In this document: positions 9,593-16,585 of the stretch, in pieces
How the letters are laid out: every line of letters starts with the position of its first letter
Numbering within the stretch: position 1 is the stretch's first letter
From: a virus
UHGV virus genome: UHGV-0131805
Direction: 5' to 3' (one strand)
DNA: 16,585 nucleotides
Notes under the pieces: model-generated
Told to the model about the DNA's origin: nothing
What the model saw: the letters and a program-made list of their open reading frames with translations, nothing else
Databases searched by the model: none
Made by a program: the position numbers and the translations under genes

Positions 9593-9778
9593 TCATTTAT
9601 GTTTTCCAGTAATACGTATATATATGTCGATAAGAAGATTCATAATAAACAGGAAGAGCGACATCCTGATAAAGAACCAAATATCTGGCATCATGGACAG
9701 GTTTCCTGTAATCGCAAATATAAAACCAACCCCCAACACCGGAACGATAATTGCGAAAAATACAAGTCTCTTTATCAT
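9593..9778 (-). CDS. Small membrane protein (61 aa, two predicted TM helices), first gene of the AT-rich island
   Basis: Two hydrophobic stretches (LVFFAIIVPVLGVGFIFAI and FFIRMSLFLFIMNLLIDIYI). ATGA start/stop overlap with the upstream 183-aa gene; GGGAG 9 nt upstream. Strongly AT-rich codons compared with flanking genes. Confidence 0.5.
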   Translation of the reverse strand: MIKRLVFFAIIVPVLGVGFIFAITGNLSMMPDIWFFIRMSLFLFIMNLLIDIYIRITGKHK

Positions 9779-10326
9779 GGCGTTAACTCCCGTAATACAG
9801 CGTCCTCGGCAGTCCGGCGACGGTAATAAACAGCGTGAGCAGAATGTTCAGATATGCCAAACTTTTCGCCAATTTCCCGGAATGACAGACGGCGAGGGTA
9901 ATCGGAATCCCGTAGTGCACGTATAAGACGAACATCCTCATCAGATATACGTGTGCCGGGGCGTAACTCACCGCACTTTGTTAATCCGGCACCAATCATT
10001 CCTGCGCGGCACCTGACAGAGTCTTTATTACGTCCGAGATAATCCCCCATTTGCTGGCAGGTCATTGTCCGGGCATTTTTTCGGATAAATTTATCTTCAT
10101 CAGGTGTAAATCGCGGTCGTTTATATTTCAGCAACTCCGGGTATGTACTGCGCAATACGCCAGTCCGGTTATATACGGCCCAGACACTTCTTTTTATTCT
10201 GGCGGCAATATCCTTGACCGGGGTGGAGGAATAAAGCGCAATCAGCAGCGCGTCTTCTTCAGGTGTCCACGGGCGGACATGAGCGGGTGCACAGCCTTTT
10301 CCCCCCATGGGTTGTAATTTCATCAT
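9775..10326 (-). CDS. Hypothetical DNA-binding protein (183 aa) with two tandem W/F-TP-[ED]ED helix-turn-helix-like repeats and a C-terminal HTH-like segment
   Basis: Internal repeat visible in the translation: WTPEEDALLIALY...VWAVYNR and FTPDEDKFIRKNA...VRCR (Myb/SANT-like spacing). C-terminal LSFREIGEKFGISEHSAHAVYYRR resembles an HTH. Family not confirmed. Confidence 0.45.
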   Translation of the reverse strand: MMKLQPMGGKGCAPAHVRPWTPEEDALLIALYSSTPVKDIAARIKRSVWAVYNRTGVLRSTYPELLKYKRPRFTPDEDKFIRKNARTMTCQQMGDYLGRNKDSVRCRAGMIGAGLTKCGELRPGTRISDEDVRLIRALRDSDYPRRLSFREIGEKFGISEHSAHAVYYRRRTAEDAVLRELTP

Positions 10327-11378: not shown

Positions 11379-11523
11379 GAATTATTTCCCCACCACATTA
11401 TTAATGACGATGTAAACGTATTTCATATTTCTTACCCCTTATTTTCTGTTTTCAGGCGCAAGCAGTCCCCTGACGCGAGCGCCATAATTAAAATGAAGTG
11501 ATATTTAATTGATTAATTCGGTG

Positions 11524-12054
11524 TTATTTATTCAGTCCGGCGTCCTGTTCAAAAGGCTCGACATAAAAACTTTCAGCGCCTTTATTCACCTTAATACCGG
11601 CAATGCCTTTCACCGCATCCGGCTCCGCCAGGACCGCTTCCTTATTCACTTCCTCTTTCGTGCGGATGAAACGCTCAAGGCCCATACGGCGCAGCATTTC
11701 AATCACACCTTCCACATCACGGCTGACGCTGCATGATGGATTTCCCAGTCGCCATGACACCGTTCCGGTGGTCAGATTAGCTGTTTTGGTTTTTCCGCCG
11801 TTCGTCAGCTCATCGCGGTTGGTTTTGCACCAGTCCTGAATCCCTTTAAAAAGCACTTTGATTTGCTTTTTAAGATTTTCAATCTGCGGCGTATAACGGG
11901 CGGTGATTTCTGCCACTTCATCATTCATTGCCGTTTCCAGGCGCAGCGCCTCTCGCTGAATATCTCCCAGGGTGCGGATATCACGGCTGACTTCTTCCCG
12001 GGTCTGCGGTGCCGCCTCGGCTGCGGCCTTTAATTTTGTAATGCGTTTAGCCAT
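11524..12054 (-). CDS. gam: Gam, host-nuclease inhibitor protein (Mu Gam / Ku-like DNA-end-binding family)
   Basis: 176 aa. Segments such as LETAMNDEVAEITARY, TNRDELTNGGKTKTANLTTGTVSWR and LERFIRTKEEVNKEA closely track Mu Gam as I recall it. AAGGA RBS. Confidence 0.8.
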   Translation of the reverse strand: MAKRITKLKAAAEAAPQTREEVSRDIRTLGDIQREALRLETAMNDEVAEITARYTPQIENLKKQIKVLFKGIQDWCKTNRDELTNGGKTKTANLTTGTVSWRLGNPSCSVSRDVEGVIEMLRRMGLERFIRTKEEVNKEAVLAEPDAVKGIAGIKVNKGAESFYVEPFEQDAGLNK

Positions 12055-12065
12055 TTTGTTTTTCC

Positions 12066-12359
12066 TTATTGCAATGTGTCAGGTGCTTTCTGCAAAGAGC
12101 GGTGCTCAATGCTGCCATTCACCCCCAGAGCCTGCATGGAACCCTGAAGTTCATCTGTCAGAAACTGAATAATTGTGGGGCTGTGATATTTAAGAATTTG
12201 CGCATAAACATCACATGGGCCTGTCGGTCTGTTCTCCGTATCACGTTCGATTTTTACAGTGGCAGTAACACCCTCCGTGATTTCCTCACTATCATTACCG
12301 GCTGGCTTTACTTCATGCATTACGTGGTCAAATTCAAAAATAACGCGAACTTTGCTCAT
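12066..12359 (-). CDS. Hypothetical small protein (97 aa), paralog 1 of a tandem pair
   Basis: Starts MSKVRVIFEF...; ends ...QALGVNGS.... Start moved from the ORF-track position to ATG 12359, 4 nt after the stop of paralog 2, with AGGGG upstream. Confidence 0.5.
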   Translation of the reverse strand: MSKVRVIFEFDHVMHEVKPAGNDSEEITEGVTATVKIERDTENRPTGPCDVYAQILKYHSPTIIQFLTDELQGSMQALGVNGSIEHRSLQKAPDTLQ

Positions 12360-12363
12360 GGAA

Positions 12364-12636
12364 TTACCCCTGTTGATTAAATTCATTACCGTTAATAACC
12401 CCGGAAGCCATGCTCCTGTCTTTCATGAATGCACCGGCTTTCATTGCCACAAGTTCAGCAAAGTCTCTGCTTTCCGCGAGCATAACCATCCCAAAAATCG
12501 TGGCTGGCCCAGCATCCTTCTTCTTTATTCCGGTTGACCGTATATCCAGACTTATCCCCATGTGCGCGCTGCCATCAGCGTTTTTACGGATAACGTCCTC
12601 CTTGTATTCGAAAATAATGCGAACAACTTTACTCAT
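12364..12636 (-). CDS. Hypothetical small protein (90 aa), paralog 2 of a tandem pair
   Basis: Starts MSKVVRIIFEY...; ends ...MASGVINGN.... Start set at ATG 12636 with GAGGA 7-8 nt upstream; the ORF-track 5' extension to 12735 is rejected. Confidence 0.5.
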   Translation of the reverse strand: MSKVVRIIFEYKEDVIRKNADGSAHMGISLDIRSTGIKKKDAGPATIFGMVMLAESRDFAELVAMKAGAFMKDRSMASGVINGNEFNQQG

Positions 12637-12710
12637 CCTCTGGTCCTCGTTTTGTTCGGATAACTGACCCGGCGTCTGACCTGATGACAGAGCCGAACCA
12701 TGAAGCAACT

Positions 12711-12941
12711 TCATACTTCCCAGTAAACCGTGCATCCGCTTATGCGGGTGGCCTTCACACGGCGGCGCAGGCCGTTGGACTTAACGGTGATTTCAATTTC
12801 CTCACCACTCCCCTGAACCTCGCCTACCGGCGGCGTGGTTTTCAGTGCAAAACGTTGCGGATAGCGCTTACTGCGTTCCAGTACCGCACCGGCAAGCTCG
12901 GTCAGGCGACGGGCGTTATTCAGTGAATCAAACAAATTCAT
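12711..12941 (-). CDS. Hypothetical small early protein (76 aa)
   Basis: GGAG 9 nt upstream of the ATG; start overlaps the upstream gene's 3' end by 14 nt. Similar in size and position to Mu kil, but no sequence evidence for that. Confidence 0.4.
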   Translation of the reverse strand: MNLFDSLNNARRLTELAGAVLERSKRYPQRFALKTTPPVGEVQGSGEEIEITVKSNGLRRRVKATRISGCTVYWEV

Positions 12942-13347
12942 AGGTGAACTCCGGTTGTATCAGTAATGGATTCATGCGCGATGCAGCCAGTTCCAGCAGG
13001 AGGCCCCGATCAACCTCACCCATCCCCGGTATTTTTCGGGTTTCGCCACGCATGATTGCCCGAAGAATGGAGTAACCATGTCGCCACTCCCGGCGATAAT
13101 CACCCGGGATCAGAAAACCAAAACGCAGGCCTTCCCATACGTCCACATCAAAGCACTCATAATCAAAACGCTGCCGGACAGATTCACACTGCTGGTCTGC
13201 ATACCATTGATACAGGTCGATAAACAGAAAACACACACCGTCACCGTTCATCAATTCATAGATATAATCACGAACCTCACAGTCATTGTTGTTAAACGCA
13301 CGAAAGCTGTGGAGAACATTGATTTCCTGCTGTATCTGCGTATTCAT
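12928..13347 (-). CDS. Hypothetical acidic early protein (139 aa), rich in aromatic and Cys residues
   Basis: ORF co-directional with the early operon. D/E-rich with several C, W, Y and F. No motif recognised. Confidence 0.5.
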   Translation of the reverse strand: MNTQIQQEINVLHSFRAFNNNDCEVRDYIYELMNGDGVCFLFIDLYQWYADQQCESVRQRFDYECFDVDVWEGLRFGFLIPGDYRREWRHGYSILRAIMRGETRKIPGMGEVDRGLLLELAASRMNPLLIQPEFTYEFV

Positions 13348-13359
13348 ATAACACCTCGT

Positions 13360-13587
13360 TTAGCTGATTCGTTTTGCACCGATAAAACGACAAATATTGC
13401 TGTAAGCTTCTTTCGCACCTTCACGATCAAGTCCTGCCGATATTGCCATTCTGGTGCGATCATTAAATTCAAAAAGTAAATCGCCACATCCTTCACTGTC
13501 AGACACGGAGACTGCTTTGACGTTATCGAAATTCACCAGGTGAAAGCGTCCGTAAATATCAGGAATATTAAATGCAATCATAATCAC
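13360..13587 (-). CDS. Hypothetical small early protein (75 aa) immediately downstream of B
   Basis: ATGA start/stop overlap with the MuB-like gene. No motif recognised. Confidence 0.45.
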   Translation of the reverse strand: MIMIAFNIPDIYGRFHLVNFDNVKAVSVSDSEGCGDLLFEFNDRTRMAISAGLDREGAKEAYSNICRFIGAKRIS

Positions 13588-14516
13588 ACCTGTGAGAGTA
13601 ATTCAGGGTTGGCATAAACCTCTTTAAAGGCCGCATTAATATGTTTTTCTGTCAGCGCCGCGCCTTCACCACTGGCGGTGATCCACGCCTGGTTAAGTGT
13701 ATGTGTCAGAACACGTAACGCTCCCGGCTTTTCAGCGATCGCCTGCATGACGGCCAACTCTGCCTCACCACTGATACCCCATGCACGGGCAATAGCCAGC
13801 ACATCGGCCTTTTTGGCCTTGCGAAGTTGTTTTGTACGGGCAAGACGGCTGAACAGGCGCGATAAATCATCAAAGGCGCGGCGTCCGCCTTTAAACAGCC
13901 CCTTTGGGTTACCGATAAGCACCATCCCGATCCCCGTGGCGTCCTGAATTGCCCGGAGTTGCTCCAGACCGTCAATACCAAGATGATCCGCCTCATCCAC
14001 AATCACCAGTCCGCGCGTTCCCATCAGGCGACGGCGGATGGCGCGGGACAGTGCCCCTTTGTTCGCGCGGGTGTAATCAATCCCCAGCGCATCGGCCAGC
14101 TCCAGCAGACACTCCGTGACGCTGGAGTGCGCGGGTGACAGGGTGATCATCCAGGTGTTTGGTTGCTCCTGGCAGTAATTACGGGCGGTGGCCGTTTTAC
14201 CTACCCCCGGCACGCCCACTATGACGTTAATACAGCCCATCAGGCGAACCGCCTGAAACAGCGCGCGCAGTTCCTGGACTGTCTGCGTTTCCACAAACTG
14301 CGGCGGTTCCGGCAGTGCGCTTTGGTTATTCCAGTTCTCATACCAGGAATGCAGGGAAGCCGCCACAGCAGCGTTATCGCCTTTATATTTTCCCTTGCGG
14401 AAAGCCGATAATGTGCCGTCAGAAATACCCGCCTCTCTGGCGATGGCATACTGCGTCAGTACGCCGCCATCAATAAGTTCATCTATGGTCTTGATTACAT
14501 CGTTAATATCAGTCAT
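13584..14516 (-). CDS. B: MuB-like DNA transposition protein B (AAA+ ATPase, target DNA activator)
   Basis: Walker A GVPGVGKT and Walker B LVIVDEADHL in the translation. Segments LPEPPQFVETQTV, LSRAIRRRL, KKADVLAIARAW and EKPGALRVL track Mu B as I recall it. Directly downstream of the transposase gene. Confidence 0.85.
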   Translation of the reverse strand: MTDINDVIKTIDELIDGGVLTQYAIAREAGISDGTLSAFRKGKYKGDNAAVAASLHSWYENWNNQSALPEPPQFVETQTVQELRALFQAVRLMGCINVIVGVPGVGKTATARNYCQEQPNTWMITLSPAHSSVTECLLELADALGIDYTRANKGALSRAIRRRLMGTRGLVIVDEADHLGIDGLEQLRAIQDATGIGMVLIGNPKGLFKGGRRAFDDLSRLFSRLARTKQLRKAKKADVLAIARAWGISGEAELAVMQAIAEKPGALRVLTHTLNQAWITASGEGAALTEKHINAAFKEVYANPELLSQV

Positions 14517-14597
14517 ATTATTTACCTCGCTTGAGACAGCATTCTCCGAGACTGAAACCCAAATAACCTGAGTTACCCCTCGGGTTATTTTTTTATT

Positions 14598-16585
14598 TCA
14601 GGCCAGCGGGTCATTTTCTTTTAATTTCGCTTCAAGCAGCTGTAATCCCCGCTGGAAATTACGCTCGTATTCTTCGTCAGGTTCATCATCAATCGCTGGC
14701 TGCTGAACGGTCACCGTATTACCCACAGGGCGGTATATGTTTTCCAGCCATGGCTCCTGCGGCTTGTGCTCCAGCACGTTGACCACCTCATCCTCGGCAT
14801 CACGAATTTTTTCCTCTGCGCGTTTACGCATGCCTTTAAGACGCTGCTGCTGTTTGTAGTATTCCGCGCTGACCGGGAAGGCTTCGCGTTTATTGCCGTC
14901 CCATACCGCCTCGCAAATCACGCTGCCATCCAGGCGACGCACGGTAATTCGTTCGGCATCATGAATGTCATAGCTGATAAGCACCTTACGGCCATGCTCA
15001 TCACGCAGCTCGGGCGCGTAGTAAATATTATTCAGCCAGCGTATTTCGCAGCGTCTTACAGGGCGTTCCACCATCGGCCGGAACATATCCCGCAGCTCAA
15101 CATCGGACAGCCATTCAATTTCCGTGTCCTCTTCTGCCAGGCGTTTTTTTCTGAACTCCGCCGGGCTGTAATGCTTACCGTTCGGCTTCATCGGTAATTC
15201 ATCGTGCGGCCGGTTGTTGTACCACTCAACACCGTCACGAATGGCATCAATCAGTTCAGACCAGGACGGTAAATCACGCATCGCTGACTGCTGCCGGGCG
15301 TTCAGCCGCTTACCCTGTTGCAGGGCAGTGAATGCCGAGCGTAAATCGCGGTTGGTTTTGCGTAACGTCTCGCGATCTGCACCTTTTCCGAAATAGGTGC
15401 GGTATTTACGGGCTATGCGCATCGGTAATGTGCGGTTAAGCCGTTCGATAATGCCTCGCCCCTGCGGATTCCCGGCAATTCCGGTCGGGTGATTAATCCC
15501 CAGGCGCGGCAGGATCCCCACAACCTCCTTATCCAGGATGTCGGCGGTTTCCCCCGAGCCGTTATCCGAGTAATACAGGAACGGTTTGCCGTGATGGCGA
15601 ATACCGTGCTGTATGGCCCCGGCTACGGCGAAAACATTTTCAGCCAGGTCAAGGCTCCAGCCCACCACAAAGCGCGTACCACCGTCGATAACAAAGGTCA
15701 CTTCCGGTGCAAATGGCCGCCCGTGAACCGGGTGCGCACATTTCAGCTTCATGCCGTGACCGTCACCAATCCAGACATAATTCACCGGCATTTTTGACCA
15801 GTCGCGGCGCGTGAATCCCTCAAGCGGGGGGTATTCACTGCCGGTCACCCGGCCTTTTTGTTTCACCACTTCCGGCAGTTTCTTCATTGCGCGGCGAATG
15901 GTGTCATAAGAGGGCATGATATCGAGCATATAAGGCTCATCAGCGTGCCGGTGTTGCCATTCAGCAACAAAATCCTCGTAAGCCTCGGTCATGGGGCGGC
16001 CGTTTGACTGGCGATACTGCACCAGAAAATCGGGTAGCCAGTTAATATCTTCGGCCTTTATTTCCTTGCGTTTGCCTGGCGCCAGTAAAAGCAGGCGTTC
16101 AGTAGCGTTCTGCGCCTTGTTAAAGGCCGCAATCCAGCGTTTCAGCGTGATTTCACTCAACACGCGGCTGTTTCCCTTTTTGGCGTTTGCCGTCTCAACC
16201 ATTGCCACAATGCGCTCGTCCAGCTGCGAACGTGCCAGGTTGTCAACGATAAACCGGATAGCCTTCGCGCAGCTGAAACCGGGTTGTTGTGCGACTTTCA
16301 TCACTTCGCTGACGATCGCGATTCGTGCATCAGCCACCTGACGCTGATTTTCGGTCAGGGCATTGAGGCGTTCGACCATCAGTTGTGGTGATCCGCGATA
16401 TGCCTCCACCGCATCAACCACGGCTGATGAGCGTCTGGCCTTTGTCACCACCGGAGCCGGTGATTCGTCGGCTTTTTGCGTCATCAGTTGCAGGGCGTAG
16501 CGTTCGCGTACTGCCTGCTGAACAGTTAAAGGCAAAGCTCCTATTTCACACTCTAAAACTTTCCCTTTTACCCCTGGTTTTAGCC
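14598..16585 (-). CDS. A: MuA-like DDE transposase, 5'-partial (N-terminus lies beyond the right window edge)
   Basis: DDE triad context VWIGDGHG, LYYSDNGSGE and GRGIIERLNRT. The reading frame is open from 16535 to the window end, and that in-frame extension (GVKGKVLECEIGALP) resembles the Mu A segment GVKGGKAIEYNANSLP that I recall lying roughly 35-50 residues into MuA. Confidence 0.85.
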   Translation of the reverse strand, partial: LKPGVKGKVLECEIGALPLTVQQAVRERYALQLMTQKADESPAPVVTKARRSSAVVDAVEAYRGSPQLMVERLNALTENQRQVADARIAIVSEVMKVAQQPGFSCAKAIRFIVDNLARSQLDERIVAMVETANAKKGNSRVLSEITLKRWIAAFNKAQNATERLLLLAPGKRKEIKAEDINWLPDFLVQYRQSNGRPMTEAYEDFVAEWQHRHADEPYMLDIMPSYDTIRRAMKKLPEVVKQKGRVTGSEYPPLEGFTRRDWSKMPVNYVWIGDGHGMKLKCAHPVHGRPFAPEVTFVIDGGTRFVVGWSLDLAENVFAVAGAIQHGIRHHGKPFLYYSDNGSGETADILDKEVVGILPRLGINHPTGIAGNPQGRGIIERLNRTLPMRIARKYRTYFGKGADRETLRKTNRDLRSAFTALQQGKRLNARQQSAMRDLPSWSELIDAIRDGVEWYNNRPHDELPMKPNGKHYSPAEFRKKRLAEEDTEIEWLSDVELRDMFRPMVERPVRRCEIRWLNNIYYAPELRDEHGRKVLISYDIHDAERITVRRLDGSVICEAVWDGNKREAFPVSAEYYKQQQRLKGMRKRAEEKIRDAEDEVVNVLEHKPQEPWLENIYRPVGNTVTVQQPAIDDEPDEEYERNFQRGLQLLEAKLKENDPLA

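Follow-up and report, generated by a model that had tools for sequence, protein, structure and literature searches.

A putative host-takeover module in the early region of an Escherichia coli Mu-like prophage: a PHROG 3375 protein, a gp8-like protein and a Kil homolog

The viral DNA UHGV-0131805, a stretch of 16,585 nucleotides (nt) analysed at its full length and referred to here as the window, covers the early and middle regions of a transposable Mu-like prophage of Escherichia (E.) coli. Its genes lie on the minus strand in the order transposase A, B, five small genes, Gam and homologs of Mu gp11 and gp12. Directly after B come three of the small genes, i.e., open reading frames (ORFs) 1, 2 and 3, which encode proteins of 73, 139 and 76 amino acids (aa) and are found at 13360-13581, 12928-13347 and 12711-12941, respectively. 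The product of ORF1 is assigned to the uncharacterised family PHROG 3375, that of ORF2 is identified as a diverged homolog of Mu gp8 (also named E7 or Mup08) and that of ORF3 as a member of the Mu Kil family. Together with the conserved gene order, these assignments make it probable that the three early genes, co-transcribed after A and B, constitute an old syntenic module for host takeover, composed of a putatively PH-like protein, a gp8-like protein and Kil.

The upstream gene of the operon encodes the transposition ATPase B (13584-14516), which matches Pfam Phage-MuB_C (E 4.5e-25) and AAA_22 and is 48% identical to MuB. Its 3' end reads ...CAG GTG TGA, and a 75-aa call of ORF1 (13360-13587) starts at this GTG, which overlaps the B stop codon (GTGA). 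An ATG at 13581, two codons past the GTG, is found 5 nt after the sequence AGGTG and is the start in all 73-aa homologs, in RefSeq and in the PHROG 3375 profile, where profile positions 1-73 correspond to residues 3-75 of the 75-aa reading (E 1.4e-39). The spacing from AGGTG and the starts of the homologs, RefSeq entries and profile thus indicate that ORF1 is most likely 73 aa long. Counted from this ATG, ORF1 begins 2 nt after the B stop without overlap, whereas the GTG would give an overlap of 4 nt. The distance between ORF1 and ORF2 is 12 nt and contains the sequence GAGGTG, while ORF3 starts 14 nt inside the end of ORF2. The original prediction, in which a first product of 75 aa and its two successors follow B with overlapping start and stop codons, is therefore borne out at the junction of ORF2 and ORF3, but not at the other two.

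On the minus strand, no promoter-like or terminator-like site was found within the three-ORF interval, from which it follows that the three genes belong to the early A-B operon; no Rfam family matched in the region 11400-14700. The ratio of nonsynonymous to synonymous polymorphism (pN/pS), calculated from 8-10 distinct relatives, is 0.30 for ORF1, 0.42 for ORF2 and 0.19 for ORF3, i.e., all three are genuine protein-coding genes under purifying selection. The original placement of the interval in the counterpart of the semi-essential region of Mu stands: B is followed further downstream by Gam (11524-12054, minus strand; 57% identical to Mu Gam) and by the gp11 and gp12 homologs. The ORFs of this region of Mu are largely uncharacterised (PMC3820752, PMC3325207).

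The 74 nt that separate the end of ORF3 from the next gene, which encodes a 90-aa protein of PHROG 4107 (12364-12636), look intergenic; the lower bound of the region had been set at 12636. This segment (12637-12710, minus strand) is not a plain spacer but what a deletion has left of the 3' end of a 93-aa gene, as shown by alignment with the E. coli loci L002 and L003, where the gene is kept, and it also carries the ribosome-binding site (RBS) of the 90-aa gene. The product of the intact 93-aa gene matches PHROG 1518, "host nuclease inhibitor" (E 8.5e-43), and is annotated as "host nuclease inhibitor protein" in RefSeq. The gene is retained between kil and the next gene not only at L002 and L003 but also in Salmonella (L024) and Klebsiella (L026).

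Family assignments of the three products

Searches of Pfam-A and NCBIfam with the ORF1, ORF2 and ORF3 proteins returned no match, and nothing significant was found among the sequences of solved structures, either with single sequences or with profiles. The assignments given below are based on PHROG profiles, profile-profile alignment and comparison with the early proteins of Mu. They revise the earlier view that no product of the region can be recognised, which fails for two of the three.

The ORF3 protein is small and basic (76 aa, isoelectric point (pI) 10.0) and matches PHROG 2679, "Kil", over its full length (E 7e-39), with a cross-match to PHROG 2743 (E 4e-4). Mu Kil (also named gp5 or Mup05) displays the reciprocal pattern, i.e., a match to PHROG 2743 (E 1.3e-42) and a cross-match to PHROG 2679 (E 9e-5). 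When Mu gp5 was compared by hhalign to a profile built from the homologs of ORF3, the alignment comprised the C-terminal 43 residues (probability 89.7%, E 1.9e-6); BLASTP gives 32.5% identity over 40 aa. The ORF3 homologs and Mu gp5 have in common the motif ...A-R-x-x-G-C-x-[VI]-x-W, which reads R-[IV]-S-G-C-T-V-Y-W-E in the former and R-L-N-G-C-Q-I-I-W-R in the latter. The Pfam family PF26843 (Kil_protein) is found as a precomputed match on all close homologs and on the 76-aa gene at the same position of contigs that carry an identical ORF2. The two proteins also resemble each other in size (76 and 74 aa) and charge (pI about 10 each), belong to the same Pfam family and are both encoded in an early operon downstream of B. 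The pN/pS ratio of ORF3 is 0.04 for codons 1-38, 0.55 for the central linker and 0.00 for codons 58-76. From these data, ORF3 is classified as a member of the Mu Kil family. It differs from Mu Kil in that it is found in a sister PHROG and is about 33% identical to it in the C-terminal part only, and also in that two genes are inserted between B and ORF3, whereas Mu kil directly follows B.

Filamentation is the effect of the kil genes of lambda and the Rac prophage. The sequence of Mu kil is unrelated to these (PMC3961180), and its expression, in the account of Waggoner et al. (1989) that is given in PMC3961180, renders E. coli cells spherical, which is read there as inhibition of elongation. 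A search of the literature on Mu kil yielded nothing beyond this phenotype from 1989. The PHROG label "septation inhibition" was probably carried over by name from another kil gene and would not describe the mechanism of the Mu Kil family. In addition, deletion of the semi-essential region restores viability of cells after infection with replication-defective Mu (PMC3325207).

The ORF2 protein aligns with Mu gp8 over residues 1-104 (hhalign probability 98.6%, E 1.1e-15), and BLASTP gives 31.6% identity across 76 aa. PHROG 3690, which contains Mu gp8 (E 2.7e-95), is matched weakly by ORF2 (E 0.0039). The two proteins have the same length of 139 aa, are encoded in the same B-to-gam interval and contain the motif F-[DN]-V-D-x-W-E, which together identify ORF2 as a diverged homolog of Mu gp8/E7. 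The differences are also clear: the identity of about 30% is confined to residues 1-104 and does not extend to the dissimilar C-terminal third, ORF2 is the more acidic of the two (pI 4.7, compared to 6.7 for Mu gp8), and it is located upstream of kil, whereas Mu gp8 is found three genes downstream of kil. The earlier description of the 139-aa protein as acidic and rich in aromatic residues (F+W+Y, 15.1%) is correct; that of a cysteine (Cys)-rich protein is not, because only four residues (2.9%) are Cys and they form no motif. One Cys is invariant among the close homologs and none across the wider family, and a Cys-based metal site was therefore rejected.

Structure prediction suggests an alpha/beta fold for ORF2. 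Among its fold matches, all of them weak, small acidic chaperones of type III secretion rank highest, and the structural match to the class I chaperone fold (CesT/SycH-like) is not significant. The family is tiny: of 1.84 billion representative proteins searched with a profile, 13 matched at E<=0.001, two of which (P0064 and P0068) are repetitive and probably spurious, and only one locus, in a metagenome-assembled genome of Sodalis, was found when 185,579 species were scanned at one genome each.

Homologs of ORF1 with a length of 73-81 aa are found in E. coli, Salmonella and Klebsiella, and they display an invariant N-terminal motif, IPDIYGR.xL.NFDNV. No counterpart in Mu was detected by BLAST, i.e., ORF1 is, as judged from its profile match, a member of a family that Mu lacks. 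The predicted fold, five beta-strands followed by a C-terminal helix, may be PH-like; a fold search of BFVD gave only weak or unnamed matches, and PH-like and LytTR folds were considered. A 70-aa gene found at the equivalent position in the L009 lineage aligns collinearly with ORF1 (hhalign E 0.005, 27% identity), which is only suggestive of homology.

Gene order, loss of ORF2 and sequence diversity

In Mu, the genes of the interval are ordered B, kil, gp6, gp7, gp8, gp9 and gam. A different arrangement is found in the relatives of the window prophage. In Klebsiella (K.) oxytoca (L026), B (62% identity to the window) is followed by ORF1 (53%), a 135-aa ORF2-like gene, Kil (73%) and Gam (86%); the 135-aa gene is linked to the ORF2 profile by hhalign only (98.4%, E 5e-15, 21% identity). 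In L009, L022 and L023, which are from metagenomes and Sodalis, the order is B, a 70-aa gene that is weakly ORF1-like, an ORF2-like gene (about 30%) and Kil (42-44%). In the metagenomic L010, an ORF2-like gene (187 aa) is found between B and Kil, and in Salmonella (L024) B, ORF1, Kil and the 93-aa gene are found without ORF2. Wherever an ORF2-like gene is present in these prophages, its end runs past the kil start, with an overlap of 14, 17, 20 or 4 nt. This comparison identifies B, ORF1, gp8-like and Kil as the conserved order in enterobacterial Mu-like prophages, from which Mu deviates.

Within the diverged lineage, one IMG/VR contig has a frameshift in its ORF2-like gene (L022, 2998-3417). 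The whole module is decaying at L023 (2289-3071), the metagenome-assembled genome of Sodalis, where the ORF1-like gene is disrupted and Kil truncated, and where the sequence then jumps to tail genes. A gene call of 209 aa from an ENA metagenome (P0008) joins ORF2 and Kil (...LLIQPEFPMNLFDSL...), as the result of either a frameshift in sequencing or a natural fusion.

Among 5426 complete E. coli genomes, ORF1 and ORF3 are each found at 274 places in 232 genomes, and ORF2 is found in 13 of these 232. ORF1 is thus present in 274 of the 274 copies of the lineage, while ORF2 is deleted, with a scar, in about 95% of the E. coli copies (261 of 274). In the common type of scar (e.g., in FORC_069; L003, 3617-3871), the RBS, the ATG and the first four codons of ORF2 together with 15 nt are fused in frame to the kil ATG, which explains the annotated Kil proteins of 84-85 aa that start with MNMQSCGNK. 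Translation of Kil in these phages may begin at the ORF2 start, which is the stronger one. ORF2 is dispensable, often lost and the fastest-diverging member of the module.

The nearest complete E. coli genomes are 92-94% identical to the window across this stretch. Diversity, defined as the mean pairwise nucleotide difference among ORF2-bearing prophages, is 0.039 for B, 0.105 for ORF1, 0.134 and 0.083 for the N- and C-terminal halves of ORF2, respectively, and 0.056 for kil. Further downstream it is 0.106 for the 90-aa gene, 0.163 for the adjacent 97-aa gene, which is the most diverse of the region, and 0.056 for gam. The characterisation of the region as variable is thus supported by values of 0.10-0.13 in ORF1 and the N-terminal half of ORF2, compared to 0.04-0.06 in B, kil and gam, as well as by the differences in the presence and absence of genes.

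Proposed function and competing explanations

In the scenario that we consider likely, after induction or infection the early A-B transcript would continue through the closely packed ORF1, ORF2 and ORF3, each of which appears to have its own Shine-Dalgarno motif. Because the kil start is found inside the end of ORF2, translation of kil is probably coupled to that of ORF2. By analogy with Mu Kil, the ORF3 protein would kill the host without phage replication and convert rods into spheres, a change in shape that suggests that elongation of the cell is blocked and not septation. ORF3 would thus be the host-killing, morphology-altering effector of the prophage. The ORF1 and ORF2 proteins are probably small and soluble, display no catalytic signature and most likely act by binding other proteins. 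ORF2 could modulate either Kil or another target in the host, or serve as a factor in host range or counter-defence.

A few observations weigh against the proposed module. The similarity between ORF3 and Mu Kil is confined to the C-terminal 43 residues, at 33-35% identity, and a conserved killing and rounding phenotype is for this reason a matter of inference. The assignment to PF26843 is from precomputed matches only, as this family is newer than the Pfam release searched here. Furthermore, the location of gp8 three genes downstream of kil in Mu means that the adjacency of ORF2 and Kil is not universal.

Two of the three genes obtain homology-based names in a poorly characterised region of the Mu type. 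In other respects this is an ordinary refinement of the annotation, because Kil and gp8/E7 are already known from Mu. The points that stand out are a rare, fast-evolving gp8-like gene that is always found on the kil start and an invariant 73-aa core protein that Mu lacks. Both the rapidly diverging, dispensable ORF2 and the core ORF1 encode short, soluble proteins that are easily tested, and natural prophages with and without ORF2 can be used as controls.

The original prediction also viewed the region as a plausible reservoir of host-takeover or anti-defence functions, a view against which clear homology to Mu early proteins of known, non-defence function would speak. Profile comparison with the Mu early proteins revealed such homology for the Kil homolog. 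For the two other genes, the best-surviving alternative to the takeover module is that ORF1, ORF2 or both encode counter-defence proteins directed against host immunity or barrier defences, and that their diversity and patchy occurrence result from an arms race. This explanation is possible, but we regard it as doubtful. In its favour, the small genes are two to four times as diverse as B, kil and gam, the identity of ORF2 between the window type and Klebsiella decreases to 21% while that of its neighbours is 53-86%, and ORF2 is present in some and absent from other, otherwise similar prophages.

Additional support is found in Mu itself, where genes of the equivalent region were chosen for a screen of 200 accessory genes that included gp7 and gp8 (Silas et al., bioRxiv 10.1101/2023.04.06.535777). 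In that study, Mu gp7/E6 ("gnarl2") displayed a counter-barrier phenotype: it sensitised wild E. coli to phage T5 and shifted the O-antigen bands. As gp7 is a small early gene of the same Mu region, its phenotype illustrates that such a region can encode remodellers of host barrier defences. However, Mu gp8, the homolog of ORF2, which was screened as orf119 (supplementary file 3 of Silas et al.), is absent from the main text and from the phenotype list of that study. BLASTP of ORF1, ORF2 and ORF3 against Mu gp7 gave no significant match, only a chance match of ORF3 over 13 residues (E 4.2).

Other data also argue against a counter-defence role. ORF1 is core to the lineage rather than accessory, pN/pS ratios of 0.3-0.4 do not indicate positive selection, and no similarity was found to known anti-defence proteins, PADLOC models or solved structures. 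In a search of the PADLOC defence models with the five small proteins of the region, no family was matched at E<=0.1. A broader parallel is offered by the Pseudomonas Mu-like phages D3112 and DMS3, where the small early proteins Tip and Aqs1, respectively, are encoded near the transposition genes and bind host proteins. Their likeness to the three ORFs is one of analogy only, and a sequence relationship is not expected.

A composite suggestion, to which we assign a somewhat lower likelihood than to counter-defence, is that ORF2 either forms an ancient two-gene unit with Kil, as a partner that times or restrains its toxicity, or is a host-specific counter-defence factor that occurs in accordance with the defence or envelope type of the host, and that, separately, ORF1 is a core early factor, so far overlooked, of the Mu-like lineage that is most common in enterobacteria. 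The narrower proposal that ORF2 is a dedicated partner of Kil, i.e., a chaperone, antidote or timing regulator, where an acidic protein that is made just before the basic Kil would bind to it, appears unlikely. It is consistent with the finding that in at least four diverged lineages an ORF2-like gene directly precedes kil, its stop overlapping the kil start, and with the complementary charge of the two proteins (pI 4.7 for ORF2 and 10.0 for Kil). The weak fold matches of ORF2 to small acidic secretion chaperones and the single metagenomic gene call in which ORF2 and Kil are joined point in the same direction, but the latter is possibly a sequencing frameshift. Moreover, Kil is found without ORF2 in about 95% of the E. 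coli copies and in Salmonella prophages, two genes separate kil from gp8 in Mu, and Kil shows no sequence difference between prophages with and without ORF2.

Even less probable is a role of ORF1 as an accessory transposition or replication factor that works together with B. No copy of the lineage lacks the gene, which in E. coli, Salmonella and Klebsiella is the next one after B; in the window, it begins either 2 nt past the B stop or, if the GTG is used, with an overlap of 4 nt. Mu, however, transposes efficiently without an ORF1 homolog, and in L010 the gene directly after B is ORF2-like. Finally, the reading of the three ORFs as chance frames opposite true genes on the plus strand, where long antisense ORFs of 133 aa (13078-13479), which remains open in relatives, and 80 aa (12684-12926) are found, is highly improbable, as the antisense frames have pN/pS ratios of 0.91 and 1.74, respectively, and the second is interrupted by internal stops in 3 of 9 relatives, while the minus-strand frames combine ratios of 0.19-0.42 with PHROG matches at E ~1e-39 and confident fold predictions; the plus-strand ORFs were rejected as genes on this comparison of pN/pS.

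Neighbouring genes and prophage location

The transposase A gene is found at 14598-16585 on the minus strand and extends to the end of the window. The listed ORF has 645 aa and begins with TTG, whereas the A proteins of relatives are 694-696 aa long and would exceed the window end. The TTG start is thus probably an artefact that stems either from the window edge or from an in-frame stop near 16536-16585.

Downstream of the three genes, the 90-aa gene is followed by a gene of 97 aa that belongs to PHROG 2230 (12066-12359; a 106-aa call uses an upstream ATG). These two genes had been described as a paralog pair, but the only features common to both are the N-terminus MSKV(V)RIIFE and an identity of 17-18%. 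A relationship of the pair to Mu gp7 was considered and is unsupported (hhalign probability 1%; PHROG 2230 cross-match, E 0.009).

Gene content also varies further along the early region. A gap of 145 nt (11379-11523) is found between gam and the gp11-like gene, at a position where L001, L003 and L024 have an extra gene of 180-192 aa (DUF5420), the presence or absence of which is a further difference in early-region gene content. In Salmonella (L024, 4049-4687), a DUF3164 protein of 212 aa is encoded at the position held by Gam in the window. A 183-aa protein with Myb/helix-turn-helix-like matches (9775-10326) belongs to PHROG 323, the family of Mu gp9 (E8). Mu gp9 is located between gp8 and gam, while this relative is found downstream of the gp12-like gene, a position which indicates that early genes have been reshuffled relative to Mu.

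An identical ORF2 protein is encoded on many public contigs (including L005-L008), in which the prophage resides at differing chromosomal sites, i.e., beside igaA/hslO, beside a type VI secretion cluster and beside a gene of the formate/nitrite transporter family (PF01226). The different sites fit recent transposition or independent lysogenisation, as expected of a transposing phage.

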